DNA of 64,000 bases from Thermoprotei archaeon (GTDB lineage Archaea; Thermoproteota; Thermoprotei; Gearchaeales; Gearchaeaceae): positions 458-64,457 of the forward strand of contig JAFMCU010000002.1 in the NCBI GenBank assembly GCA_017857595.1, given 5' to 3'. A program made the position numbers and the translations under genes. Every line of letters begins with the position of its first letter. Positions within the stretch are counted from its first letter, which is position 1. Below the pieces are notes generated by a model that was given only the letters and a program-made list of their open reading frames with translations, searched no databases and was not told the DNA's origin. This document shows, piece after piece, positions 1-30,270 of this stretch.

Positions 1-224
1 ATGCCTTTGTCCCCACGGGTAATCCGTTTCACCAAGGTTTCGCCTTCCTCAGCATGCTACATTCGTTGCCGAACGTAACATAACATCATTGACATTTAGC
101 GAAACCTTGTCCGTTTCTGTTATTTACCAGGCCTTCCGGCCTATGCCTCACGGCATCGTGGGTCCTTTTGTGACGGAGGACTTTCCTCAGGTTAAACCTG
201 ATAGCTACTCTATGCTCCCTTACC
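1..224 (-). ncRNA. rnpB: RNase P RNA, 5' portion (the rest runs off the window start)
   Basis: GC-rich island in AT-rich DNA. The minus strand reads ...CUGAGGAAAGUCCUCCGUCAC..., containing the universal CR-I GAGGAAAGUCC (forward 178-188). Further on are GGCCUGGUAAAUAACAGAAACGG and CCUUGGUGAAACGG, which resemble conserved RNase P core segments. The exact 5' end is uncertain. Confidence 0.6.
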
Positions 225-13932: not shown

Positions 13933-14250
13933 TTAGCCACCGTGAACAAAAGAAAATATAGTTAATGAATCTCCCTTTTTAATAATCTTCCTTTCATTTA
14001 ACCAAGCAGGAAATACCTTCCCATTATATTCTATTAAAATATCTGAAGAAATATCGTTTTGTTCATTTAAAATCCTATTTTTAAATTCTGTTCCCAACTT
14101 ATTGGATAAATTATTAATTAACTCTTTAAGTTCTATTTCATTATCAGTTATTTCTAAAATAATCTCATCAGTCTTAGCAATGCCTTTTAGTACACCTTTT
14201 AAACTTACTTTGATAATTTTATTACTCAAATATAAAGCACACATGATCAA
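13933..14250 (-). CDS. Beta-grasp ubiquitin-like / sulfur-carrier protein (MoaD/ThiS/SAMP/Urm1 family) with C-terminal Gly-Gly
   Basis: 105 aa ending ...GDSLTIFSFVHGG-stop. MoaD-like pattern IKVSLKG...ILIEYNGK....L..GDS..I.P.V.GG. The start is uncertain because of the N-terminal extension MIMCALYLSNK. Confidence 0.6.
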   Translation of the reverse strand: MIMCALYLSNKIIKVSLKGVLKGIAKTDEIILEITDNEIELKELINNLSNKLGTEFKNRILNEQNDISSDILIEYNGKVFPAWLNERKIIKKGDSLTIFSFVHGG

Positions 14251-15070
14251 TCAATCGTTCCTCTATAATACATGGGGGTTCTCTCTTCACTACTTTTTTA
14301 TTCTTTAAAAAAGCTAAAAAAGATTTTTTAGCTTCTTCAAGATTATCATTCTTTAAAAAATCTATGGGATAGTTTACATTATATACTTTAGCAGGAAAAA
14401 TATGCCTAGTTGTTTTTGCGGGGAATAAAATATTGTATTTTGCATTTTCAATCACTTCTCTTTTAGTTACTTTTTGTGGTATAATATAAAAATATTTAAG
14501 ATGTTCTTTTGATTTTATCTCTTTTAGTAATTCTTCTTCAGTAATAAATTCGATTTTTCCATTTAACAAGATAACTTCATTGTCAAATTTTTTTATTAAA
14601 TCATTTATTTTTATGTAATTATCTTCGGCAATTAAAAATATATCACCCTTACTAATAAAAAAAGCTGAATTTGATGAATTAAAAGTATTATTATAGTCTC
14701 CGCTTACATGGATAACTTTTAATTTATAATTTTTTATCACTTTTCTTACGATGCTTGAATCATTGACTTTAAACTTTCTGATCCATCTTTGAACTTCTAC
14801 AAGATTATTTATATAGTCGATTAAAACTACAGGCACGCTGAAAACACCTAATCTCTTTAGTGCCTCAAAACGATGCATTCCATCCAGTATAACATTTGTT
14901 ATCTTATCCACTATTATTGGATGTTTTACTAACTTTTTGCGTACCATATCTTCTACTATTTTATTAACGGCTTCTTCTATTACTTCTTCGTGAGGCAGCA
15001 ATTTTTTGATCTCAAATAATGTGATTTCTATCTTAAAATTATCAAAATATAAGTCATATGGTTCATTCAT
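14222..15070 (-). CDS. ParB/sulfiredoxin-fold domain protein (possibly related to archaeal ADP-dependent serine kinase SerK)
   Basis: 282 aa. The N-terminal domain LLPHEEV...HPIIVDKITNVILDGMHRFEALKRLG..VPVVLIDY has the DGxHR motif of the ParB N-terminal/Srx fold. Confidence 0.5.
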   Translation of the reverse strand: MNEPYDLYFDNFKIEITLFEIKKLLPHEEVIEEAVNKIVEDMVRKKLVKHPIIVDKITNVILDGMHRFEALKRLGVFSVPVVLIDYINNLVEVQRWIRKFKVNDSSIVRKVIKNYKLKVIHVSGDYNNTFNSSNSAFFISKGDIFLIAEDNYIKINDLIKKFDNEVILLNGKIEFITEEELLKEIKSKEHLKYFYIIPQKVTKREVIENAKYNILFPAKTTRHIFPAKVYNVNYPIDFLKNDNLEEAKKSFLAFLKNKKVVKREPPCIIEERLIDHVCFIFE

Positions 15071-15426: not shown

Positions 15427-17085
15427 ATGGCGATCGCATCACCTTCTGCTGTAGTCCCTGTATTAATTTTAAAAGAGGGGTCTCAAAGAACAACTGGTTT
15501 CGAAGCATTAAGAGCAAATGTAGCAGCAGCTAGAGCAATAGCAGAAACAGTTAAAACATCATTAGGACCAAGAGGAATGGATAAAATGCTAGTAGACAGT
15601 ATAGGGGATATTACCATAACGAATGACGGTGCAACAATACTAAACGAAATTGAAGTGCAGCATCCAGCAGCTAAGCTATTAGTTCAAATATCTAAGACTT
15701 TAGATGATGAAGTAGGCGATGGAACTACTAGCGCAGTTGTTATAGCAGGTGAACTTTTAAGAGAAGGAGAAGCTTTGATAGAAAAGAATGTGCATCCGAC
15801 TCTTATTGTAACAGGATATAAAAAAGCTTTATCAAGAGCAAAGGAATTACTAGAAAAATATGCAATCAACGTTAATCCATATGATGATGAAATTTTGAAA
15901 AAAGTATGTTTAACTGCAATTCATGGTAAAGCTGTTGGTTCTGTTAGGGATTATTTAGCTGAAATATGTGTTAAGGCCGTTAAACAAGTAACTGAAGAAA
16001 GAGATGGACGAAGGATAGCTGACCTAGATAGAATACAGATTATTAAAAAACAAGGTGGAAGCTTATACGATACAAAATTAATAAATGGTATTGTCATAGA
16101 TAAAGAAGTTGTTCATCCAGGCATGCCTAAAAGGATTGAAAATGCAAGAATAGTACTTTTAGACGCTCCATTAGAAATAGAAAAACCTGAAATTGATGCC
16201 GAAATAAGGATTACAGACCCTGCACAGCTTAAGGCTTTCCTTGGAGAAGAAGAAAAAATATTAAGAAATATGATCGAAAAAATTAAATCACCTGAAATTA
16301 ATGCAAATGTTGTTTTCTGTCAAAAGGGTATCGACGATATAGCTCAACATTATCTAGCAAAGAGTGGTATTTTAGCTGTTAGAAGAGTTAAAAAGTCAGA
16401 CATGGAAAAATTAGCACTAGCAACAGGGGCAAAAATTGTAAGTAATATAGAAGATTTAACATCTTCAGATGTAGGAGAAGCTAAATTAGTTGAAGAAAGA
16501 AAGGTGGGAGAAGATAAAATGGTCTTTGTAGAAGGCTGTAAGAATCCAAAAGCAGTTAGTATTTTAATAAGAGGAGGATTAGAAAGATTGGTAGATGAAG
16601 CAGAGCGTTCAATAATTGACGGACTAAGTGTTGTTTCAGATGTTATTGAAGACCCAAGGATATGTATCGGCGGGGGTGCAATAGAGATAGAAATCGCAAA
16701 AGAATTAAGAGATTTTGCCAAAACAATTGGAGGAAGAGAACAATTAGCAATTGAAAGTTTCGCAACCGCATTAGAAGGTATACCAAGAGTGCTTGCAGAG
16801 AACGCAGGAGTGGATCCTATAGACGTACTAGCTGAGTTAAGAGCTATTCATACAAAACCAGACGGCAAATATTATGGAATAAATGGCTTAACTGGAAAAC
16901 CAGCCAATTTATATGAGCTAGGTATTGTAGAACCTTTCAATGTAAAGTTACAAGTTCTAACAGGAGCAACAGAAGCCGCTTCAACCATATTAAGGATAGA
17001 TGAAATTGTAGCAGCTTCCAAAATATCCAAAGAACCATCCACTAAACCCCCAAAGAGTGAGGAAGAAGAAAAAAGCAGCGATTAA
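15427..17085 (+). CDS. ths: Thermosome subunit (group II chaperonin)
   Basis: 552 aa. [31 protein letters not shown] and a C-terminal acidic tail. Confidence 0.95.
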
Positions 17086-17655
17086 TTGAATATTCTTATA
17101 ATAGGTACACCGGGCGTTGGAAAAACAACAATTTCTATTAAACTTTCTTTGGATTTTAAATTAAACTATTTTAATTTAAATACAATATTTTATTATTTTA
17201 ATATGTTTTCAGGTTTTGATAAAATTCGTAATTCTAGAATTATAAAAATAAATAAAAATAAAACTTTATTGATAAATTTTTTTAAAAAAATCACTAATTC
17301 CATTATAGATACTCATATAGACAATATACCATTTTCAAATATTGACGTTGTTTTTGTTATTCGTCGCAATCCTTTAGTTCTAATAGTTCAGCTTAAGAAG
17401 AAATATAAAGAGAAGAGAAAGATTATTGAAAATGTCGAGAGTGAATTCATAAATTTGATTTCTGATAGCATACATAGCAAATTTGATAAAAGAATACCAG
17501 TTTTAGATGTAGCATCATATAAACAGATTTATAAATCATTAAAAGACATTAGAATAACTAAAAAGGAGTCAACTAAAGTGATAGATTGGATTAGAATATT
17601 ATCTAAAACGAATGCTATTGATAAATATTACAAACATATTAACAATTTTAAATAA
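17086..17655 (+). CDS. Fap7/AK6-like P-loop NTPase (putative adenylate kinase-type)
   Basis: 189 aa. MNILIIGTPGVGKTTIS P-loop at the extreme N-terminus. TTG start immediately after the thermosome stop codon. Confidence 0.55.
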   Translation: MNILIIGTPGVGKTTISIKLSLDFKLNYFNLNTIFYYFNMFSGFDKIRNSRIIKINKNKTLLINFFKKITNSIIDTHIDNIPFSNIDVVFVIRRNPLVLIVQLKKKYKEKRKIIENVESEFINLISDSIHSKFDKRIPVLDVASYKQIYKSLKDIRITKKESTKVIDWIRILSKTNAIDKYYKHINNFK

Positions 17656-18784
17656 ATAATATATAATTATCATCTTTATTACAATTATTAATACCAAATA
17701 ATTTTATTATATAGACATAATTTAGATTAATAATTAGTAAAAACTCATCTGTTTTTGGTATCAAATTCTTTAGCTTTATCTTCTTTAGGGTATCTTCACT
17801 TAAGATCTCTATAATTTTGTTGTGCAGATCCATGTAGCTATCATATGATATCAACATTATGTTGAAATATCTCAGTAAGTCTAGTTTTACAATATCATCA
17901 GTGATATAGAAAAGAATTATATTTTTCATTTTCAATACGGTATTAAGCATATCATATAGTTGTAAATTGTATTTTTCTATATGATTAATTATCAAGGTAG
18001 GAATGTTTAATATGAATATTATCTCATCTTTCATAAAGTAAATATAATATAAAATGATATAGAGAAGCATTAATTTAAAGTTGATTTCCAAATTAGATGA
18101 AAGTGGAATTATAAATATTTCTTGCTGATCTGCATCTACTTTACTTATTTTAATATTTTGTACTATTAAGTTATCAATTTTACTTAACTTACTTATTATT
18201 GAATACCTAGTTTCATTTTCAAAAGGGGTTCTAAGCATCAGATTCTTAACGCTTGATATTATCATTTTAAAATCAATTATTTCTTCATTCGGTGTATCAA
18301 ATAAATTATTTAATACATTGTAAAATAACGATGATTCCATATTAGAAAAGTCACATACAGTTTTAATTGTGTCTGTTATGAACTTTGATATTGTACTCTT
18401 ATCTATATAAAATAATTTACTTATAATATAATTGATATTTTTAATCAACAAAATATTAACTGACTGATCGTCTAAACCTAATATTATGTTATTCCAATCG
18501 AAAATTATAATTTTTTTATCTTTATATTTTAATAATATATAATTTATAAATTTCTTAATCTTATCATTTTTATCATATATTATATATAAATGACTATACT
18601 TTTTATAATTAATATCTACACTCCTATTTAGTTGATCATTAAAGCCTATTCTCAAAGCGTGGCTTAATTCGTTGCATATTAAAATAGAATATTCAAAAAT
18701 ATTGTCAAATACTTTACATAGTAATATGACACCTTCAATGTTATGATTTATATCTTTTTTCGCTCTTTTTATTATGTTAAGCAT
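17648..18784 (-). CDS. Hypothetical protein, last gene of the pilus-like operon
   Basis: 378 aa, N/I/K-rich, with no motif I recognise and no Walker A. Overlaps the upstream gene by 13 nt. Confidence 0.4.
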   Translation of the reverse strand: MLNIIKRAKKDINHNIEGVILLCKVFDNIFEYSILICNELSHALRIGFNDQLNRSVDINYKKYSHLYIIYDKNDKIKKFINYILLKYKDKKIIIFDWNNIILGLDDQSVNILLIKNINYIISKLFYIDKSTISKFITDTIKTVCDFSNMESSLFYNVLNNLFDTPNEEIIDFKMIISSVKNLMLRTPFENETRYSIISKLSKIDNLIVQNIKISKVDADQQEIFIIPLSSNLEINFKLMLLYIILYYIYFMKDEIIFILNIPTLIINHIEKYNLQLYDMLNTVLKMKNIILFYITDDIVKLDLLRYFNIMLISYDSYMDLHNKIIEILSEDTLKKIKLKNLIPKTDEFLLIINLNYVYIIKLFGINNCNKDDNYILFI

Positions 18785-19179
18785 TCAAAAAAATCATAAA
18801 TTAGGCGGTTAATTTTACTATTTTTTAGGCACTCAATTTTTTTACCGAACACTGCTTCAAGTTTTATTTTTACATTTTCGAATGCGTTTTCAATATTTGA
18901 AGGATTTTTGAAAAGAGATTTTGTCCATACTAACGCATATAGTCTTGGTTCATTGCCATAATCTTTAACATTTAAATTAGTACCTGTAAAGAAAATTATA
19001 TTAAGTTTAAGATCTTGTGCATCTTTTATACAAGACATTAAAATTTCTCTATTAATTTGGTTTATTGATTCAGATGTTATAATAAGGATCATGATAAAAA
19101 AATAAATGGCTTTATTCCTTTTTCTTATGAAATGAATATTTTTGTTATAATGTATAAATTTTAAGTTATTCCAATCCAT
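18772..19179 (-). CDS. Hypothetical protein with an N-terminal hydrophobic segment (possible minor pilin-like)
   Basis: 135 aa. RKRNKA-IYFFIMILIITSE could be a class III signal peptide plus hydrophobic helix. This is a weak call. Confidence 0.35.
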   Translation of the reverse strand: MDWNNLKFIHYNKNIHFIRKRNKAIYFFIMILIITSESINQINREILMSCIKDAQDLKLNIIFFTGTNLNVKDYGNEPRLYALVWTKSLFKNPSNIENAFENVKIKLEAVFGKKIECLKNSKINRLIYDFFECLT

Positions 19180-19394
19180 TTGGCTATTTGAGTTAATATA
19201 TTAGTGATTTGGTTGAGGATATTGCTCATATTGTTACCTACATTATTAAACATGTTAGAATAATAACCCTTTAAGCCAAGTAGTACTCCTGCAACTATAC
19301 TTAGAACTATTGAAAATGCAACTGCTGCTACCCCTAATAGCAAACCTTCTTCAAGTATAGGCGAACCTCTTCTCTTTTTAATGTTTATTTTCAT
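19161..19394 (-). CDS. Short type IV pilin-like protein (Flp/Epd-like) with a class III signal peptide
   Basis: 77 aa. MKINIKKRRG-SPILEEGLLLGVAAVAFSIVLSIVAGVLLGL has a basic leader, Gly at -1, Glu at +5 and a ~25-aa hydrophobic helix, followed by an amphipathic C-terminal helix. Confidence 0.6.
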   Translation of the reverse strand: MKINIKKRRGSPILEEGLLLGVAAVAFSIVLSIVAGVLLGLKGYYSNMFNNVGNNMSNILNQITNILTQIAKWIGIT

Positions 19395-19420
19395 TTCAAA
19401 TAATTTTTAGTATTTAGTAT

Positions 19421-20071
19421 TTAAGCTACTATATGTAATAAAGTAAAAAACAAAATGGTTTGAATTAAAAAATAGGTCACTGATGAAAAAATTTCATGCT
19501 TAATAATGTTTGAGTAGCCATAAATTATTCTCATTATAAAAAATACAATAATAACAGTTAATATGTAATAATAAGTTATAATATAAATGTTAGGTATTAT
19601 TAAGCTTAATAAATATGTATTTTTTTCACTTAGTAAAAAATTATGGCTAACAATTGTAAAATTAATGAGCCAAGGTAAAATTCCGTATATTAAGGCCAAA
19701 GAGAAATTTAAGAGTAGTAGTTTTTTTTCTAAAGAATTGAAATAATTCGTAATTTCTTCAAATGCCTGATTTATTTCATATAATGAATTAAATATTTTAT
19801 CAATACTTTGCTTAACCTTTCTAGCTATGTTAGGTAAATCAGTTATTAACTCAATAATTTCATAGTAATCTCTATAATTTTTTTGTGTAATCTTGAGTAA
19901 TTTATTAGCAGGTACGCCTTTTTTCAATAAGCTTATTTCAGCATCCATCTCTTTTTTCAAAAGGGGGTTATACTTAATACTTTCTAGTATTATTTTTTCT
20001 AAGCTGTATACACTGTATTTCCCTATTATTTGTGCTAATAGAAATCCTATTATTCTTCTATTCTTTTTCAT
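19421..20071 (-). CDS. Single-domain T2SSF-type pilus platform membrane protein (TadC/FlaJ-half-like)
   Basis: 216 aa. A cytoplasmic helical region (EISLLKKGVPANKLLK...) is followed by predicted TM helices. Confidence 0.5.
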   Translation of the reverse strand: MKKNRRIIGFLLAQIIGKYSVYSLEKIILESIKYNPLLKKEMDAEISLLKKGVPANKLLKITQKNYRDYYEIIELITDLPNIARKVKQSIDKIFNSLYEINQAFEEITNYFNSLEKKLLLLNFSLALIYGILPWLINFTIVSHNFLLSEKNTYLLSLIIPNIYIITYYYILTVIIVFFIMRIIYGYSNIIKHEIFSSVTYFLIQTILFFTLLHIVA

Positions 20072-20564
20072 TATTTATTTTCCTCTTATATTTCATAGAC
20101 ATATAAAATATAATTATAACTAATATTATCACATAATACTGCATATTTATATTATAGAAAATAATAAATAAAATAACTATAAATGGTATAAAATAAAACA
20201 TTATCATTATTATTGTAATAAATATATTAATTTTATCCATCATATCTATAAATTTGATTTTATATGAATATATTATATTACTAAATTTATTATAATCTAG
20301 ATTACCTTTGAAATAATAATCATTAACAATTTGCATTAAATCACTTGCGTTTATTTTATTTAAATAGTAAGATATTATTTTATAGTTATCTATGCCCTTA
20401 TTTATTAATCTAAATAAATCATAATTTTTATGATTACTAATAATGAATGTAATATAGCTGTATAAAGTATGTTTTGATGATTTCAATAGCAAATACTTTA
20501 ATATTAGAATTACGAATAATATTTTTCTGCTTTGAACTATCTCTAACTCATTTATATATACCAT
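20058..20564 (-). CDS. Single-domain T2SSF-type pilus platform membrane protein (TadB/FlaJ-half-like)
   Basis: 168 aa. One N-terminal TM helix, a helical region LFRLINKGIDNYKIISYYL..GNLDYNKFSN, then C-terminal TM helices. Confidence 0.45.
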   Translation of the reverse strand: MVYINELEIVQSRKILFVILILKYLLLKSSKHTLYSYITFIISNHKNYDLFRLINKGIDNYKIISYYLNKINASDLMQIVNDYYFKGNLDYNKFSNIIYSYKIKFIDMMDKINIFITIIMIMFYFIPFIVILFIIFYNINMQYYVIILVIIIFYMSMKYKRKINNEKE

Positions 20565-20566
20565 TG

Positions 20567-22276
20567 TTAACTAACCATTAAATTATTATATATTATGTCT
20601 ATGTCATCTCGTAATTTATTGAATTTGAGTTTATCGTTAATTTTATTAGATTGTAGTATGCCGTTCTCAAGGCTTAAATTATTAATATCGTATATTTTAA
20701 TAAGTTCTGTGTTATCTTTATCTTTATTCCAATTTATTTCGTATATGCATTTTAATTTTCTAAGTATTTTATTATTATCAAACGATCTTTCCATGTAAAC
20801 AATCAGATCTAGAGAAGGAATGCAAGATGGGTGTATATTATGCTGTATTATCCATCTATTTATTAATTCTTGAACAGACGCTGCATGGCATGTCATAATT
20901 CCTTTTAGCCCAGCTAATAGTGCATGAAATACTGCTTGAGAATGTTCTTTTGTCTGAATTTCTCCAAAAAATATCCAATCTGGAGAACGATGTAACATTT
21001 TTACGATTTCTTTACTTTTAGTTGAATATTTGTCTGAAACATCTATAGAGCTAGCTTTTATGAATAAACTTTTCTCTTTTTTAATAAACGCATAAACTTC
21101 TTCTACATCTTCAATAAATACTTTTCTCCAATAATTAGGTAAATGTTCAGAGATTGCATACGCTAAAGTAGTTTTACCGCTGTTTGGTTCTCCACATATA
21201 GCAATAGAAAATCTATTTCTAGCAGAATAAATTAAAAATGCAGCTACTTTGGGTTCTATACTATTTAATTTTATTAAATCGTGCATATTTAGCATTTTTT
21301 TATTAAATTTACGTACGTCTATTGCTGTATCTGTTACAATAGGAAAGACATCTATAGCTATTCTTAAGTTTATGTTCTCATCAAGAATATTTAATTTGAC
21401 TGAAGGATTGCTCAGATTTATTTCTTCACCGCTAATAATGCTAATTGCAGTCTTTAATTTTTCTACGTCAGTAGAAGTTAAAAATACATTAGTATCGCAT
21501 CTGCCAAATTTTACATGATCAATATATACCCAACTATTTTCTTTATCTAAATATATTTCTTGAATATCTGTATCTTCAAGCAATGTGAAAAATCTTCTAA
21601 GATTATTGCTTAACCCAGCAACATCTTCAATAAGTCTTAATTTATGAAATTTTAATGTAGATTTATTTATTCTTTCATTTTCTACATTTACAATGTAAAG
21701 ATAGTTCTCTCCTTTTTTAATCAGCTTTATAGTTGAAAAAAGCAAAGGTTTTATCTCATGAACTTTATCTGTAGTTACATACCAATCTTCATCTAGTGTG
21801 ATATCTGGTTCAAAAACTCTTTCATAAACTTTATCAAATTCATATCCCATTTCTAAATAAAGTGCTATTTCTCGCAAAATTTTAATAGGTGCTCCATATA
21901 ATTCTCGCTCTAAAATTTTTTTTCTAAATGTTTCATTTTCAAATAAAAATTCAGCAGGTTCAAATAAAATCCGAGTTATTTCATCTTTCTTAATTTTCAA
22001 AAAGTATTTATAAAATAAAAAAAATTTTTTAGAATTAAAAAAATCTAATAATTTTTTATAAGATAATATTATGCTCTCATTATATGATTTTTTTATTCTA
22101 TTATTAGAAAAGCACAGTCTAACAGCTTTAATGCTTAATGTGTTTAAAATAGTTAAAGTTTTTTGCCTACAATATATATTTTTTTCTAATCCTATTTGAT
22201 TATCTTCTAAAGGGCAGATAAATTTAAGAAGGTTACTTCTCCTAAAACAACTACAATATTCACATTTACTTCTCAT
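20567..22276 (-). CDS. Type II/IV secretion-family ATPase (FlaI/PilB/TadA/VirB11 T2SSE superfamily)
   Basis: 569 aa. Walker A CGEPNSGKTT, Walker B region RSPDWIFFGEI, His box GIMTCHAAS and the upstream ...AIDVRKF motif. The N-terminal ~230 aa domain starts with a Cys cluster. Confidence 0.8.
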   Translation of the reverse strand: MRSKCEYCSCFRRSNLLKFICPLEDNQIGLEKNIYCRQKTLTILNTLSIKAVRLCFSNNRIKKSYNESIILSYKKLLDFFNSKKFFLFYKYFLKIKKDEITRILFEPAEFLFENETFRKKILERELYGAPIKILREIALYLEMGYEFDKVYERVFEPDITLDEDWYVTTDKVHEIKPLLFSTIKLIKKGENYLYIVNVENERINKSTLKFHKLRLIEDVAGLSNNLRRFFTLLEDTDIQEIYLDKENSWVYIDHVKFGRCDTNVFLTSTDVEKLKTAISIISGEEINLSNPSVKLNILDENINLRIAIDVFPIVTDTAIDVRKFNKKMLNMHDLIKLNSIEPKVAAFLIYSARNRFSIAICGEPNSGKTTLAYAISEHLPNYWRKVFIEDVEEVYAFIKKEKSLFIKASSIDVSDKYSTKSKEIVKMLHRSPDWIFFGEIQTKEHSQAVFHALLAGLKGIMTCHAASVQELINRWIIQHNIHPSCIPSLDLIVYMERSFDNNKILRKLKCIYEINWNKDKDNTELIKIYDINNLSLENGILQSNKINDKLKFNKLRDDIDIIYNNLMVS

Positions 22277-22637
22277 TTGATTTCTTTAAAAGAAATGGTA
22301 AATTATCGTTAATAATAGAAAATAGGTTATTGGTTTTATTATCTACCTCTGTGACCTTCTTCTCTATGTTATCCATTCTGCTTTTTAATGAGTTCAGTGT
22401 AGCTTTTACATTTGCAAGATCAAAACTTAAGCTTAGTATATCTTTTTCTAACGTAGCTAAATCAGAGTATTGCTCATCATCTTTCTCAACATTTTGAGGT
22501 TCCACATCTTTTAGTAACTCATTTATCTTGTTATTATCAACACCAAAATTTTCCAATAATTTTTTAATTATGTTAACATCTATTTTGTTATCTATCAGAA
22601 TTTTGACAAATTTTTCTAATTCTATTTTGTATGGCAT
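22266..22637 (-). CDS. Coiled-coil protein of unknown function
   Basis: 123 aa. Acidic linker plus heptad-like LATLEKDILSLSFDLANVKATLNSLKSRMDNIEKKVTEVD. Overlaps both neighbouring genes. Confidence 0.45.
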   Translation of the reverse strand: MPYKIELEKFVKILIDNKIDVNIIKKLLENFGVDNNKINELLKDVEPQNVEKDDEQYSDLATLEKDILSLSFDLANVKATLNSLKSRMDNIEKKVTEVDNKTNNLFSIINDNLPFLLKKSNEK

Positions 22638-23599
22638 TTTTCCTTTATTAATGCTAGAATGAAGGGTAGATTATCACGTATGGAAAATTCTGGTATCTCA
22701 CAAATTTTTGATACGTTTTTTTGGCTTAATAAAGGTCTTATATAAAGTCTTTCAGCTACAACCTTATTTGCTAAATATAGTATTGTTGCTGCCAAAACTA
22801 AAGGACTTTTACCTTGTATTTTCACAGGGTCAAGTTTACTTATTATATCTATTGCTTCCTTTTTAATTAAGTTTAAAACTACCTTAGCCGGTATCTTATT
22901 GTTCATATTTTCTTCATAATCTTTATGCAAGTCTGACTCTTTCTGAATAAAGTTAATGTATCTTTCAAGGTAGGTTTTTAACATATATTCATAAGAAATA
23001 GGCTTATCTATCAATTTCTTATTAATGATTGAAGCGCACCATGCTATATTGCTTTTAACTACACGATGACCAATTTTTCTATACACTCTAACTATTTCAT
23101 CAAGGCTCATAACTTTGTTTCCGCCATATATTCTGCTAGTTATAAGTAAGCATGCCGCTGATATTGTGGGCTGAGTGAATTTTAATGCTAATGATTTAAA
23201 TAATTTTATAGACTTGATATAAAGGGTCAATGAATTAATAGCCAACTGTCTGCTGAATCCTATTTCTGAACAAATTTGCATTAAATTGTTTAGTATTTCA
23301 CTGTTTACTTTTATTGTAGCTTGAAACGCTTTCAATTTGTCGTCCAACTTTTTCATCGTATATAAATAACGTTGAATATTCTCGTTTGGTATCTTGTTTT
23401 GAAAATCTTTAAACACATATGAATTCATTAATAATTTACCACCTAAAGGAACGCTAGGTAAACTATTTCCATCATCGTCAATTTTTTCTTCATTCAAAAT
23501 CATTTGATCATAATCAATTAAACCGCACTGTGTACAAACTAGCTTATTATCATTATTAATTAGCATGGAACCACATTCTCTACATTTATTCGTATTCAT
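22622..23599 (-). CDS. tfb: Transcription initiation factor TFB (TFIIB) homologue, divergent B-reader/linker
   Basis: N-terminal ribbon CRECGS..LVCTQCGLI and two cyclin-like repeats (PTISAACLLITSRIYG; GKSPLVLAATILYLA). I prefer the ATG at 23599. The track start at 23608 is a TTG. Confidence 0.75.
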   Translation of the reverse strand: MNTNKCRECGSMLINNDNKLVCTQCGLIDYDQMILNEEKIDDDGNSLPSVPLGGKLLMNSYVFKDFQNKIPNENIQRYLYTMKKLDDKLKAFQATIKVNSEILNNLMQICSEIGFSRQLAINSLTLYIKSIKLFKSLALKFTQPTISAACLLITSRIYGGNKVMSLDEIVRVYRKIGHRVVKSNIAWCASIINKKLIDKPISYEYMLKTYLERYINFIQKESDLHKDYEENMNNKIPAKVVLNLIKKEAIDIISKLDPVKIQGKSPLVLAATILYLANKVVAERLYIRPLLSQKNVSKICEIPEFSIRDNLPFILALIKEKCHTK

Positions 23600-23629
23600 T
23601 CTCTTCAAGAAAGCTTTGATAATTATGGA

Positions 23630-23637
23630 TTAAAAAT
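23630..23637 (-). promoter_or_regulatory. TATA-like box (minus strand reads ATTTTTAA) candidate for the tfb operon
   Basis: Lies 31-38 nt upstream of the ATG at 23599. Confidence 0.3.
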
Positions 23638-23753
23638 GACTACGATGCTTAGTAGAACTGTGGTTTATTAATAGAAAATTTTAGACGAATTTTTTTACTA
23701 TGTAAGAGTCAATCGAAAGTATTAATTATTATTTGTAATATTATTGAATTATT

Positions 23754-27745: not shown

Positions 27746-29008
27746 ATGGCAGTGTTCATAAAATTATTAGGTGGTGGAGGTGAAATAGGTAGAAATGCGA
27801 TTGAAATAAATTATAATAATAACTCAATTCTACTAGATTATGGTGTTATATTTAATTCAGAAATTGGTTTTCCTCTTAATGTAAACTTAAAAAAATTAAT
27901 TGGTATTATAATTTCGCATGCGCATTTAGATCATATAGGGGCTTTACCTTTAATATACAGTTCTAGCATAAATCCTAAGATCTATTTTAATTCTATGACA
28001 TCAGAATTAATGAATTTACTATTGCTGGATTTTTTAAAAGTCTCTAAAGGGAATCTTCAATTTGACGAAACGGGAATTTTAAAAATATTTGAAAAAAGTA
28101 GTAATGTACCATTTAAATATGATTTCATTATCAATGATTTTTCGATTAAAGTAGGAAATGCAGGACATATACCAGGTAGCTGGATTATCAGTGTTGAAGT
28201 AAAAAATAAAAAAATACTATATACAGGTGATTTCAATGTATATGATACAAAGTTATTAAATGGAGCTGAAGTTATAGAAAGAAACGTAGACCTTTTAATT
28301 TGTGAATCTACATATGCATGTGTTAATCATATTGATAGGCAAAAAGTAGAAAAATTATTTATAGAAAAAGTTTTAGAAACTTTAGAGAATAAAGGTAATG
28401 TTTTAATTCCTTCATTTGCTGTGGGAAGGTCGCAAGAAATTCTATGCATATTACAGAAATATAACATTAAATATCCAATTTTTTTAGATGGAATGGCTAG
28501 AAAAGCAAGCAGTATCATGTTAAAATATCCCGAGTATTTTAAAGATTATAACTTACTTAAATCATCTCATGATTTAGCTATTTGGGTTAATAATGAGAGA
28601 GAAAGAAAGCGAATATTAGATGAGCCATCGATTATAATTTCGCCAGCTGGAATGCTTAAAGGTGGACCCGCTTTAAATTACATCAAAAAAATAATTTCTG
28701 ATTCTCGTAATTCTATATTATTCGTAGGTTATCTTGCAGAAAACACACCAGGGAGAGAAATTTTAGAATCTCACACATTTACAACTGAAACATCAAAAGA
28801 AAAAGTTAAGGCTAATGTATATTGGTTTGGTTTATCATCCCATACAGACATGAAAGGAATAATAGATTATATAAAAGAAGTTAATCCACAAAAGGTAATG
28901 TTTATACACGGAGAAGTTGAAAGAATAATCGAAATGAGTAAATTAATTAAAAATAATTATTCTATAGATATTATTTTGGGCAAAACCGGTGAAAGTATTG
29001 AAGTTTGA
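27746..29008 (+). CDS. Beta-CASP metallo-beta-lactamase RNase without KH domains (aCPSF2 / aRNase J-like)
   Basis: 420 aa. LGGGGEIGRN, HAHLDHIGALP, GDFN and ESTY motifs, with a C-terminal SSHTD..FIHGE. Confidence 0.75.
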   Translation: MAVFIKLLGGGGEIGRNAIEINYNNNSILLDYGVIFNSEIGFPLNVNLKKLIGIIISHAHLDHIGALPLIYSSSINPKIYFNSMTSELMNLLLLDFLKVSKGNLQFDETGILKIFEKSSNVPFKYDFIINDFSIKVGNAGHIPGSWIISVEVKNKKILYTGDFNVYDTKLLNGAEVIERNVDLLICESTYACVNHIDRQKVEKLFIEKVLETLENKGNVLIPSFAVGRSQEILCILQKYNIKYPIFLDGMARKASSIMLKYPEYFKDYNLLKSSHDLAIWVNNERERKRILDEPSIIISPAGMLKGGPALNYIKKIISDSRNSILFVGYLAENTPGREILESHTFTTETSKEKVKANVYWFGLSSHTDMKGIIDYIKEVNPQKVMFIHGEVERIIEMSKLIKNNYSIDIILGKTGESIEV

Positions 29009-29876
29009 TAAAAATTTTAGCTTTATTTTAGATTATATAGTTGTAATTTCATTACTTTCATCATTTTCATACTTTTTATCTTTATATTTACAATCGTCTA
29101 AATCATTTGTTAACCAAATCTCATCGATTATACAGACTACTCAAATTTCGATTATATTCGTTCAAAGTATATTATTAGTAGGTGCAGCGATATTAATGGC
29201 TATTATAATATTATTTTTATTAATAAAGAAAAATTATATCTTAATAAGATACATTTTTGTATTATTAATATGTTTTTCTGTATTATATATTAATATATTA
29301 TATTTCAATCCATTATACAATTTATTTTTAAATATTGAATATAATTTATTAATATACCTAATAATAATATTCATTTCTAGTTTGTTATCATATGGTGTTT
29401 TTTACGCTAAAAGTAATATATATAATGAGATTAGTTTAATAACAATAACAAGTCAAATTGGGGCTTTGCTAGGTAATATATTTAATATATTGCAAACGAC
29501 TATAATATTAATTTTATTTTCAATATATGATATTTTTTCTGTATTTTGGGGACCTATAGGTAAAATTGTTAGCAATTTAGAAAATGAAGAGAAATATAAT
29601 CTATCTCTTGATTCAAAAGAATCTGAATTATTTCTTCATGGCATGTTTCTTAGAATTAGTAATATAGAAATAGGTATAGGCGACTTAGTTTTTTATTCAA
29701 TGCTAATTTCTAATGTTACTTCATTAGGGGTTATCCCATTAATTTTTGCGTTAGTAGGAATTTCATTAGGTTATTTTATTACAATTAACATGACTAAAAA
29801 ATTTAGAATATTCCCAGGATTGCCTATACCTGTTATTATATCATTAGCTTTAATATGGATTTTTATATATTTATAA
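28989..29876 (+). CDS. Presenilin/signal-peptide-peptidase-like intramembrane aspartyl protease (A22 family)
   Basis: 295 aa polytopic protein. YD (FSIYDIFSVF), GxGD (IGIGDLVFYS) and a PAL-like FPGLPIP, in the canonical order. GTG start. Confidence 0.6.
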   Translation: MKVLKFDKNFSFILDYIVVISLLSSFSYFLSLYLQSSKSFVNQISSIIQTTQISIIFVQSILLVGAAILMAIIILFLLIKKNYILIRYIFVLLICFSVLYINILYFNPLYNLFLNIEYNLLIYLIIIFISSLLSYGVFYAKSNIYNEISLITITSQIGALLGNIFNILQTTIILILFSIYDIFSVFWGPIGKIVSNLENEEKYNLSLDSKESELFLHGMFLRISNIEIGIGDLVFYSMLISNVTSLGVIPLIFALVGISLGYFITINMTKKFRIFPGLPIPVIISLALIWIFIYL

Positions 29877-30060: not shown

Positions 30061-30096
30061 AATTTTCTATATTATTAACATATTATTAAAAAATTT

Positions 30097-30170
30097 TGGG
30101 CCGGCCCGGACTTGAACCGGGGACCCCTACCGCGTCAGGGTAGTATCCTACCAAGCTAGACGACCGGCCC
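30097..30170 (-). tRNA. tRNA-Val (GAC)
   Basis: GGGCCGG...CTACC-CTGACGC-GGTAG...CCCGG-TTCAAGT-CCGGG-CCGGCCC-A. Confidence 0.8.
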
Positions 30171-30171
30171 A

Positions 30172-30243
30172 TGGACCGGGAGGGATTCGAACCCTCGACC
30201 TTCCGCACGCCAAGCGGACATTCTACCACTGAACTACCGGCCC
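30172..30243 (-). tRNA. tRNA-Ala (GGC)
   Basis: GGGCCGG-TA-GTTC-AGTGGTA-GAAT-G-TCCGC-TTGGCGT-GCGGA-AGGTC-GAGGG-TTCGAAT-CCCTC-CCGGTCC-A. The G3:U70 Ala identity pair is present. Confidence 0.85.
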
Positions 30244-30270
30244 ACATTAAATTTCAAAAATTTTTATATT

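Follow-up and report, generated by a model that had tools for sequence, protein, structure and literature searches.

A conserved eight-gene cluster in a Thermoprotei archaeon links a TFB paralogue to a type IV filament-like ATPase, a candidate Flp-like prepilin and a CedD-like protein

The stretch of DNA analysed here, 64,000 nucleotides of contig JAFMCU010000002.1 from a Thermoprotei archaeon (assembly GCA_017857595.1; hereafter the window), contains a compact group of eight minus-strand open reading frames (ORFs) at 17648-23608 that brings together a paralogue of the transcription factor TFB, parts resembling a type IV filament machine and a CedD-like protein. The genes encode, in order, the TFB paralogue (22622-23608; 328 aa, TTG start), a 123-aa protein (22266-22637), a T2SSE ATPase of 569 aa (20567-22276), two membrane proteins, M1 (20058-20564; 168 aa) and M2 (19421-20071; 216 aa), a 77-aa Flp-like protein, p77 (19161-19394), a 135-aa accessory protein (18772-19179) and the 378-aa CedD-like protein (17648-18784). 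An earlier model-made description of this DNA, the sequence-only reading, had reported eight overlapping or nearly abutting ORFs, and our ORF listing reproduced its coordinates, sizes and all seven junctions, five of them overlaps (16, 11, 14, 19 and 13 nt) and two gaps (2 and 26 nt). Overlaps of at least 10 nt occur at 5/7 junctions in the operon and at 7/50 of the remaining junctions between same-strand genes of the window (Fisher p = 0.003), so that the operon is packed tighter than the rest of an already compact window, with the proviso that ORFs were called from the first possible start codon and overlaps may be inflated. Packing is equal in the related contig L001 (overlaps of 11, 8, 1, 19 and 16 nt), and the same eight genes are found in the same order and packing on L001 and L003-L005, where ATPase identity is 45-57%. 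The arrangement is more than chance, and the eight genes probably form one co-directional, co-transcribed operon. The window is AT-rich, with about 29% GC overall and 23-27% in the operon region. Five of the eight proteins (M1, M2, p77, the 135-aa and the 378-aa proteins) have no family-model match in Pfam or NCBIfam.

The ATPase matches PF00437 at 1.7e-15, above the cut-off, the NCBIfam FlaI model at 9.9e-27, below its cut-off, and the TadA family at 9.6e-16. Compared with the PDB, its profile finds A. fulgidus GspE2 (2oap, 1.8e-48) and S. acidocaldarius FlaI (4ii7, 9e-42), and is more distant from CpaF (2.5e-26), VirB11 (6e-16) and PilT. The Walker A, Walker B, Asp box and His box are intact and invariant in the family alignment, and the Walker A GEPNSGKTT and His box MTCHA given by the sequence-only reading are both present. 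The protein thus has the features of a hexameric T2SSE/PilB/FlaI assembly ATPase from the superfamily of type IV filaments (TFF), and its earlier assignment to T2SSE is confirmed. To judge from profile scores, on which the clade assignment is based, it is a FlaI/GspE2-type T2SSE enzyme and not a member of the TadA/CpaF clade. The Tad/Epd ancestry that had been proposed for the locus is therefore unsupported, because the ATPase profile lies far nearer to GspE2/FlaI than to CpaF/TadA. The N-terminus carries a Cys-rich module (C5, C8, C21 and C36), and the alignment shows a CxxC...CP...CR pattern kept in Thermoprotei-type ATPases. The 123-aa protein encoded just upstream is soluble and combines a coiled coil with a small helical domain at its N-terminus; it gave only sub-threshold coiled-coil matches, including FlaC_arch at 0.007. 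Homologues are present in L001, L003, L006, L009, L010, L024, L027 and several metagenome loci, and in Thermoproteota lineages the protein is mostly paired with the ATPase or the TFB paralogue.

M1 consists of a cytoplasmic helical part followed by about two transmembrane (TM) segments, and M2 of an N-terminal helical bundle and three TM segments. Neither has a Pfam or NCBIfam match, Pfam T2SSF is absent from 10 less divergent M1/M2 orthologues, and the M1 and M2 profiles found nothing meaningful among PDB sequences. The M1/M2 pair lies 3' of the ATPase gene in all lineages. Profile-profile comparison joins M1 to Asgard M1 (85.5%, E 5.7e-6), and hhalign joins M2 to Asgard M2 over nearly the full length (82%, E 1e-5). 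In Helarchaeota and Lokiarchaeia (L035, L007) the two are fused into a protein of 500-525 aa with M1 as its N-terminal half. Against bacterial TadB/C, Asgard M2 aligns at the T2SSF domain (hhalign, 42%, E 2.7e-4); M1 reaches 5%, which is not significant, as is the comparison of M1 with M2 (18.5%). An AlphaFold model of the window's M2, built from a Heimdall-dominated alignment, was poor (pLDDT 60, pTM 0.29), and a Heimdall orthologue was used instead. Its AlphaFold2 model is confident (pLDDT 86.8), and the top three PDB matches are chains A and B of the PilC N-domain (2whn; probability 0.99 and 0.98, TM-score 0.63 and 0.65, root-mean-square deviation 2.8-2.9 Å, Foldseek E 0.48) and the PilC of 3jc8, a type IVa pilus machine model. 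Because the Heimdall M2 model matches PilC and M2 aligns to the T2SSF domain of TadB/C, M2 is probably a single-domain PilC/TadB/C-like platform subunit, and M1 is a candidate single-domain platform subunit. The suggestion that both are single-T2SSF-domain proteins gains from the conservation of the pair, its fusion in Loki- and Helarchaeota and the PilC-like M2 orthologue, but finds no Pfam T2SSF match. A split platform, which had been called unusual, is not so, since archaeal type IV pilus loci often have two TadC-like genes (PMC4858521).

The 77-aa protein has the layout of a very small prepilin: a basic leader, the sequence RRG|SPILEEGLLLG, a hydrophobic helix at residues 12-45 and an amphipathic C-terminal helix. 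Its N-terminus in the window reads KKRRG|SPILE(+5)EGLLLGVAAVAF, and the family motif is K/R-x-x-R-G/A|S-P-L-x-E-E-G-L-L, in which Glu +5 and one Leu are invariant in 24 aligned homologues; the motif is 83% identical to that of L001. Basic leader, G|S site, E+5 and hydrophobic helix together constitute a class III signal, for which cleavage is predicted, and a search of the 64-kb window found no other ORF with such a signal. Ser occupies +1 nearly throughout the homologues, not Gln as in EppA-processed Epd pilins. There is one hydrophobic helix and no VirB2-like hairpin. Among PDB sequences, the one alignment that makes biological sense pairs p77 with Geobacter PilA around the G|FTLIE cleavage motif; its E of 0.06 is not significant. 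The conserved G|SPxxEEGLL motif and invariant Glu +5 bear out the earlier description of a Flp-like pilin, and we regard p77 as a candidate Flp-like prepilin.

A search for Peptidase_A24 found none in the operon or the 64-kb window. The earlier statement that no prepilin peptidase is present thus holds for this stretch but not for its relatives, which encode A24 proteins within the cluster. In the cluster of the cultured Asgard archaeon MK-D1 (L036) the match reaches 32.3 bits, above the Pfam cut-off, and in that of Lokiarchaeum ossiferum (L007) 26.1 bits; in four Thermoproteota-type loci Peptidase_A24 is the top match, always below the cut-off. The A24-like proteins of Thermoproteota-type metagenome loci are polytopic and 160-215 aa long. 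In Lokiarchaeia a short A24 peptidase gene lies directly 5' of the ATPase gene and is preceded by genes for p77, a Cdc6/Orc-like AAA+ protein and an ArsR-type helix-turn-helix (HTH) protein. The peptidase acting on the window's p77 may be encoded elsewhere in the source genome. A polytopic 295-aa protein at 28989-29876 on the plus strand was considered for this role and rejected, as it matches Presenilin and not A24. Its sole Pfam match is the Presenilin C-terminal region (GxGD/PAL; 9.7e-8, 31.6 bits, just below the cut-off), and its gene overlaps a CPSF-like beta-CASP gene by 20 nt, a pair that is syntenic in L001 and L003. The product is probably an archaeal presenilin/SPP-like intramembrane protease, unrelated to prepilin peptidases.

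Related loci also carry small proteins with pilin-like N-termini. Between the genes of the TFB paralogue and the ATPase, the minus strand encodes three to five one-TM proteins of 60-320 aa (L057 1984-4194, L067 4310-6286, L113 3763-5401, L127 2241-4437 and L006 5386-6281). Several of them are almost leaderless and start M-x-E-L-x-E-K/Y, followed by a hydrophobic stretch. They have no family matches, and none occurs in the window operon. These proteins are candidate minor pilins.

The last gene of the operon was said to encode a protein without recognisable motif, a view that overlooked its relatedness to CedD-like HerA/FtsK ATPases. Aligned with the DUF87/HerA ATPases that occupy the same position elsewhere, the 378-aa protein gives 91.7% and E 7.6e-7 in hhalign. 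These positional homologues match PF01935, and their best NCBIfam model is CedD, NF053655 (2.6e-43 to 1.5e-73), with 148-248 bits against an equivalog cut-off of 600. A hidden Markov model (HMM) of the window's 378-aa group matches only CedD-like ORFs among 5462 metagenome ORFs. CedB is a weak secondary match of the CedD-like proteins, and no match to CedA, CedA1/A2 or CedB was obtained in the operon with Pfam and NCBIfam. In the alignment, the Walker A glycine loop and Walker B acidic pair of the 378-aa protein are not conserved, and the N-terminal TM domain present in many relatives is missing. By these comparisons the protein is a degenerate CedD-like P-loop protein of the HerA/FtsK family; it is probably catalytically dead in the window because the Walker A/B signatures are lost, and it is kept at full length in three diverged genomes. 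The preceding 135-aa protein has no Pfam or NCBIfam match. A C-terminal part of about 110 aa is conserved in the alignment with L001, L003, L006 and L010, relatives at 35% ATPase identity add two N-terminal TM helices, and its HMM also matches L050.

At the other end of the operon, single-sequence matches of the first cistron are weak (PRK00423 4.5e-8, Zn_Ribbon_TF 9e-4). A family profile of 21 homologues, compared with the PDB, finds human TFIIB (2.8e-21) and Pyrococcus TFB (3e-15), over the Zn ribbon and both cyclin repeats (TFIIB residues 28-293; Pyrococcus TFB core 12-196). The Zn-ribbon cysteines are C9, C12, C25 and C28, and the best-conserved block of the alignment is the C-terminal HTH that reads the TFB recognition element (BRE), with 'FSIRD'/'SIRD'. 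The profile matches uphold the call of a TFB homologue and indicate that the protein is a true but divergent TFIIB-fold paralogue; it is not the housekeeping TFB, because its single-sequence scores lie far below the family cut-offs. A word-indexed homologue search with this profile returned 13 proteins, none from Pyrobaculum or Sulfolobus. Public gene calls place the start 9 nt downstream, at an ATG that gives 325 aa, and this ATG at 23599 is the probable true start. The divergent intergenic region between the TFB paralogue and an Lsm gene (23609-23753) was inspected by itself and aligned with its counterparts in L001 and L003. About 30 nt 5' of the TFB-paralogue ATG stands a TATA-like TTTTTAAT that is conserved in that alignment; it is a candidate promoter that would fit a leaderless operon transcript, on evidence at consensus level, a conserved TATA-like box in an AT-rich genome. 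No convincing conserved internal promoter was found upstream of p77. A second conserved block between the TFB paralogue and the Lsm_C gene, TTAATTAATACTTTC at 23700-23730, is common to the window, L001 and L003; it may be a shared site of regulation or else the promoter of Lsm.

An archaeal scan with the ATPase profile, using one genome per species, returned at least 40 loci. Among the matches listed, the ATPase family is present in Thermoprotei, Nezhaarchaeales, Methanomethylicota, Nitrososphaera and Geothermarchaeota and in Heimdall-, Loki-, Hel-, Borr-, Sif-, Frey- and Njordarchaeota, with the cultured MK-D1 and Lokiarchaeum ossiferum among the carriers; the window's own species is not on that list. 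With iterated HMMs, a TFB paralogue was counted within 8 kb of the ATPase in 31/40 of these listed loci and p77 in 28/40. The linkage of TFB paralogue and p77 persists though orientation, order and flanking genes vary between phyla. A second scan, of metagenomes, was seeded with the CedD-like protein and is independent of the first. Where enough upstream sequence was available, it recovered the ATPase and p77 in 25/27 loci each and the TFB paralogue in 22/27. The tightest linkage in the module is that of p77 directly 5' of the CedD-like gene, seen in 60/65 loci. The metagenome clusters begin with the TFB paralogue and 3-4 opposite-strand one-TM proteins with pilin-like N-termini; then come, often, an A24-like protein, and the ATPase, M1, M2, p77 and the CedD-like ATPase. 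Many end on a convergent AAA_18 gene, with the thermosome gene beyond where the contig is long enough. Most Thermoproteota-type loci keep CedD-like ATPases with intact motifs. Thermoproteota lineages keep the module beside the thermosome gene, and its core recurs in many Asgard archaea; the module is more widespread and more complete than the literature states.

The window shares these flanks. The operon is bordered by Urm1-like, S17e, thermosome and AAA_18 genes on the one side, its two ends being the CedD-like gene and the TFB paralogue. The thermosome subunit gene (15427-17085, plus strand; PF00118 in relatives' gene calls) is followed by an AAA_18 kinase-like gene (17086-17655, plus strand; 2.1e-14, PF13238 in relatives) that is convergent with the last gene of the operon, and many Thermoproteota-type loci likewise have these two genes after the CedD-like gene. 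At 13933-15070 on the minus strand, a Urm1/ThiS-like ORF of 105 aa overlaps by 29 nt the gene of a 282-aa protein with a weak ParB N-terminal match (E 4e-4). This Urm1-like and ParB-like pair adjoins S17e and the thermosome gene and is part of a neighbourhood also found around Sulfolobus cedD.

The closest published description is subclade 4D of Makarova, Koonin and Albers (2016), defined by an ATPase with an extra N-terminal Cys-rich region and an orphan protein with 4-5 TM segments (PMC4858521), with a TFIIB homologue in the predicted operon, Rpb8 nearby and 'no potential pilins' (PMC4858521, section 14). The TFIIB homologue was deemed specific to Pyrobaculum/Thermoproteus, and a transcription-related role outside pilus biology was suggested (PMC4858521). 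The supplement of that paper refers to a 'C-rich region, subclade 4D, PAE2119-like', and a 2026 preprint by Sivabalasarma and Albers repeats the 2016 view. Our operon agrees with subclade 4D in the Cys-rich ATPase N-terminus, the orphan membrane proteins downstream and the TFIIB homologue in the operon. Rpb8/RpoG adjoins the TFB paralogue in Nezhaarchaeales L009, though not in the window. As a TFIIB homologue is a hallmark of subclade 4D, a TFB as first cistron is not the oddity it had been taken for. The published system differs in comprising 2-3 components with a truncated ATPase of 335-343 aa, against 569 aa and two membrane proteins here. It was also described as pilin-less, whereas the window operon has p77 and a CedD-like ATPase and relatives add A24 and pilin-like one-TM proteins. 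Its range was Pyrobaculum/Thermoproteus, in contrast to the several Thermoproteota-type and many Asgard lineages of the present family. Judged from these shared features, the module is most likely the same system (arCOG05558/05557/13890/05559). The presence of p77 in the window and most related loci suggests that the published pilin-less definition is incomplete rather than that it describes a different system.

A second connection leads to Sulfolobus, where DNA import requires CedD (Saci_0667/SiRe_1715), an ATPase of the VirD4-like HerA/FtsK kind that is induced by UV in a TFB3-dependent manner (PMC11823120, PMC11868833, PMC6101591). The gene numbers in S. acidocaldarius are Saci_0665 for tfb3 (PMC5817253, PMC6934391), Saci_0666 for thermosome-beta (PMC10653856), Saci_0667 for cedD (PMC11823120) and Saci_0669 for Urm1 (PMC4569737). 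For Sulfolobales, Makarova and Koonin (2010, PMC2948915) described a neighbourhood of Urm1, S17e, a small arCOG07188 protein, an SSO0283-family HerA-like ATPase and a divergent thermosome gene. Since tfb3, thermosome-beta and cedD are consecutive genes in S. acidocaldarius, they look like remnants of the module, and on synteny the simplest reading is that tfb3-thsB-cedD is what the orthologous neighbourhood became once the pilus-machine genes had been lost; arCOG07188 may, by the same argument, be the orthologue of p77. The Ced/Ups systems of Sulfolobales resemble the window in a CedD-family ATPase, a TFB paralogue and the shared thermosome/S17e/Urm1 neighbourhood (PMC11823120, PMC11868833, PMC6101591); there, a TFB paralogue controls pilus and DNA-import genes, and a type IV pilus works with a DNA translocase. 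The window operon, however, lacks CedA, CedA1/A2, CedB and Ups genes, and its ATPase is of another clade than UpsE. Sulfolobus TFB3 is short, without B-finger and HTH, while the window paralogue keeps both cyclin repeats and the HTH, and the window CedD-like protein is, unlike Sulfolobus CedD, degenerate and without a TM anchor.

Other filament systems share fewer or different parts. Tad/Flp (type IVc) pili are matched by the two single-domain platform-like proteins, the very short G|xxxxE(E/Y)GL pilin and, in relatives, a short A24 peptidase without methyltransferase domain. Against this likeness, the ATPase lies outside the TadA/CpaF clade, M1 and M2 reach no T2SSF models, the operon has no Pfam or NCBIfam match to TadZ, RcpA/secretin or TadD/E/F/G, and the TFB paralogue and CedD-like ATPase are without Tad counterparts. 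Aap and Ups pili, the archaellum and A. fulgidus GspE2 supply the closest solved ATPases (2oap, 4ii7) and share the logic of ATPase, platform and class III pilin. The window nevertheless differs from the archaellum, Aap and Ups in lacking FlaH, FlaX, FlaF/G and archaellins and in its split, highly divergent platform, and p77 is Flp-sized, not a globular-headed PilA or archaellin. The likeness to bacterial Com is a functional analogy, in which a type IV filament machine (ComGA/GB/GC) is combined with ATP-driven DNA translocation; the translocases are non-homologous (ComEC/ComFA versus CedD-like HerA/FtsK), and the analogy is an inferred one.

The core of the sequence-only reading, a TFB paralogue joined to a module resembling type IV pili, is for the most part correct. 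We propose, as a reading with an even chance of being correct, that the operon is a reduced copy of an ancient type-IV-filament-like module and serves a TFB-controlled, pilus-like DNA translocation of the 4D kind. In this proposal, the hexameric ATPase would dock on a heterodimer of M1 and M2, represented by a single fused protein in Loki- and Helarchaeota. An A24 peptidase, which for the window must lie outside the operon, would cleave p77 at RG|S, and the complex would then extract p77 from the membrane and assemble the processed protein into a short pilus or pseudopilus. The CedD-like hexamer would be the DNA-translocating motor in most lineages, the whole forming an apparatus for DNA import or exchange. 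With its Zn ribbon and BRE-reading HTH, the TFB paralogue retains the parts required for TBP-DNA binding and polymerase recruitment and would act as a dedicated, operon-specific initiation factor, in the manner of TFB3 for ups/ced/cedD or of a bacterial ECF sigma factor. The window copy might support a scaffold-assisted pilus only, or be otherwise reduced in role, because its CedD-like protein has lost the P-loop signature and its cluster contains no minor-pilin-like or peptidase genes. More tentatively, we suggest that the ancient module, possibly older than the Thermoproteota-Asgard split, joins a Flp-like (pseudo)pilus, a CedD-type translocase and a TFIIB paralogue, that TFB3 and CedD derive from it, and that 4D archaea and Asgard archaea reported to be without type IV filaments carry a complete DNA-uptake/exchange apparatus.

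Several observations weigh against this proposal. The module is known from its genes, and for all its members filament, DNA transfer and transcript are predicted. M1 and M2 reach no T2SSF sequence model, M1 stands at 5% against TadB/C in hhalign, and the PilC match is confined to an orthologue's N-terminal bundle and has a Foldseek E of 0.48 despite a probability of 0.99. The 64-kb window is without a prepilin peptidase. Loss of Walker A/B makes DNA pumping by the window's CedD-like protein doubtful, and a CedD-like gene is found near the Asgard loci only in L030 and L033, most of them being without it. The probable identity with arCOG05558/05559 is judged from shared features, and the possible homology of the TFB paralogue with TFB3 and of p77 with arCOG07188 is argued from synteny.

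Some of these points would equally suit a plain adhesive, Flp/Tad-like minimal pilus in which the TFB paralogue is only a regulator and the CedD-like gene a passenger or decayed remnant. The Flp-like motif of p77, the platform-like M2, the intact ATPase motifs and the A24 peptidases of related clusters are all expected of such a pilus, and the CedD-like protein is degenerate in the window and absent from most Asgard loci. A passenger, however, does not readily account for the pairing of p77 with the CedD-like gene in 60/65 loci, for intact-motif CedD-like ATPases in most Thermoproteota-type loci or for a degenerate copy that is still full length in three diverged genomes, and the ATPase is not of the TadA/CpaF clade; we consider the adhesive pilus a real but rather unlikely explanation. 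A repurposed machine that makes no filament, linked to transcription or some other cytoplasmic process and controlling or sequestering the TFB paralogue, would follow the published view (Makarova et al. 2016; Sivabalasarma & Albers 2026). It would explain the very long-lived linkage to a TFIIB-fold protein, Rpb8 nearby in Nezhaarchaeales and Pyrobaculum/Thermoproteus (PMC4858521), a Cys-rich ATPase N-terminus that could bind a partner, and Asgard loci situated among Cdc6/Orc-like, RFC and PolD genes. Its pilin-less premise is contradicted by p77, the pilin-like one-TM proteins and the cluster-encoded A24 peptidases, and we find it improbable.

Decay of the module in the window's lineage, leaving little or no function, is hardly more attractive and perhaps slightly less so. 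The lost CedD-like P-loop signature, the absence of minor-pilin-like genes and of a peptidase from the window cluster and the divergence of all its proteins, five of eight without a family-model match, are what a decaying remnant might look like. All eight ORFs are nonetheless intact, gene order and size are kept at 45-57% ATPase identity, the ATPase catalytic motifs are all retained, the p77 motif hardly differs from that of L001 and tight translational coupling is preserved. Because eight intact ORFs are conserved over about 50% sequence divergence, a pseudogenised relic is disfavoured. A mobile conjugative element of the type IV secretion (T4SS), Ced or Ted kind would combine VirB11-like and VirB4/VirD4-like ATPases with a VirB2/VirB3-like protein, and secondary matches of the ATPase to VirB11/TrbB and of CedD-like proteins to VirB4/TraC/TrwB do point that way. 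The ATPase, however, is far nearer FlaI/GspE2 than VirB11, p77 has a single helix with a class-III-like motif and no VirB2-like hairpin, and the mapped clusters showed neither integrase nor relaxase. In several Thermoproteota-type lineages the housekeeping context (thermosome, AAA_18, S17e, Urm1, Lsm, tgtA) is constant, and because this chromosomal context is conserved a mobile-element origin is effectively excluded.

Beyond the core module, the Asgard loci show associations of their own. In Loki- and Heimdallarchaeia, two genes on the strand of p77 separate it from the peptidase or ATPase gene downstream, first one for a Cdc6/Orc1-like AAA+/winged-helix protein and then one for a 100-aa ArsR-type HTH protein (L007 4703-9073, L036 4752-9152, L034, L018, L022 and L026), and in some Asgard loci RFC small subunit and PolD DP2 genes adjoin the module. 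The Cdc6 linkage recalls the UV-regulated cdc6-2 and tfb3 of Sulfolobus, but may be no more than housekeeping synteny. A protein of about 950-970 aa is conserved behind the module in Heimdallarchaeota (L014 6355-9243, L018, L022, L026, L016 11692-14565 and L019); it has 2-3 TM segments and no Pfam match and is possibly a lineage-specific surface or accessory component. A variant cluster (L116-L118, L120 and L129) combines an ATPase of about 470-490 aa with one platform-like protein of about 400 aa, p77 and a CedD-like protein, with no TFB paralogue nearby; an example is L118 6627-14251, on a 1.3-Mb contig. In L116-L118, and not in L129, it is followed by conserved proteins of 615 aa and 425 aa. 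L038, a contig labelled 'uncultured Thermoproteales' and the closest stand-in for Pyrobaculum and Thermoproteus among the loci, carries TFB-like, ATPase, M1, M2 and thermosome genes. Elsewhere, the window contains an unsplit rpoB, whose product scores about the same against Sulfolobus as against Thermococcus RNA polymerase, so that the source lies outside Sulfolobales. It also has a large cluster of ribosomal protein genes, the RNA of an archaeal RNase P at 1-219 (minus strand; 94 bits), cut by the window start, and, at 30096-30244 on the minus strand, abutting tRNA Val-GAC and Ala-GGC genes that share or touch a boundary base.

What is new here is the relationship of the 378-aa protein to CedD, the conservation of the module in Thermoproteota and Asgard archaea and its match to subclade 4D. 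If 4D membership is correct, the published picture lacks a Flp-like subunit, a frequent peptidase and CedD-type ATPase, and a wide range, and what was seen as an 'enigmatic remnant' would turn out to be a complete machine, conserved over many lineages and equipped with filament subunit, peptidase and DNA motor. If the wider proposal is true, it would provide an evolutionary origin for TFB3 and CedD, key players of the Sulfolobus DNA-damage response. Many Asgard archaea, including MK-D1 and Lokiarchaeum ossiferum, would then have a system like type IV filaments together with a TFIIB-fold factor of its own, which would bear on DNA exchange and on operon-specific general-transcription-factor paralogues in archaea close to eukaryotes.

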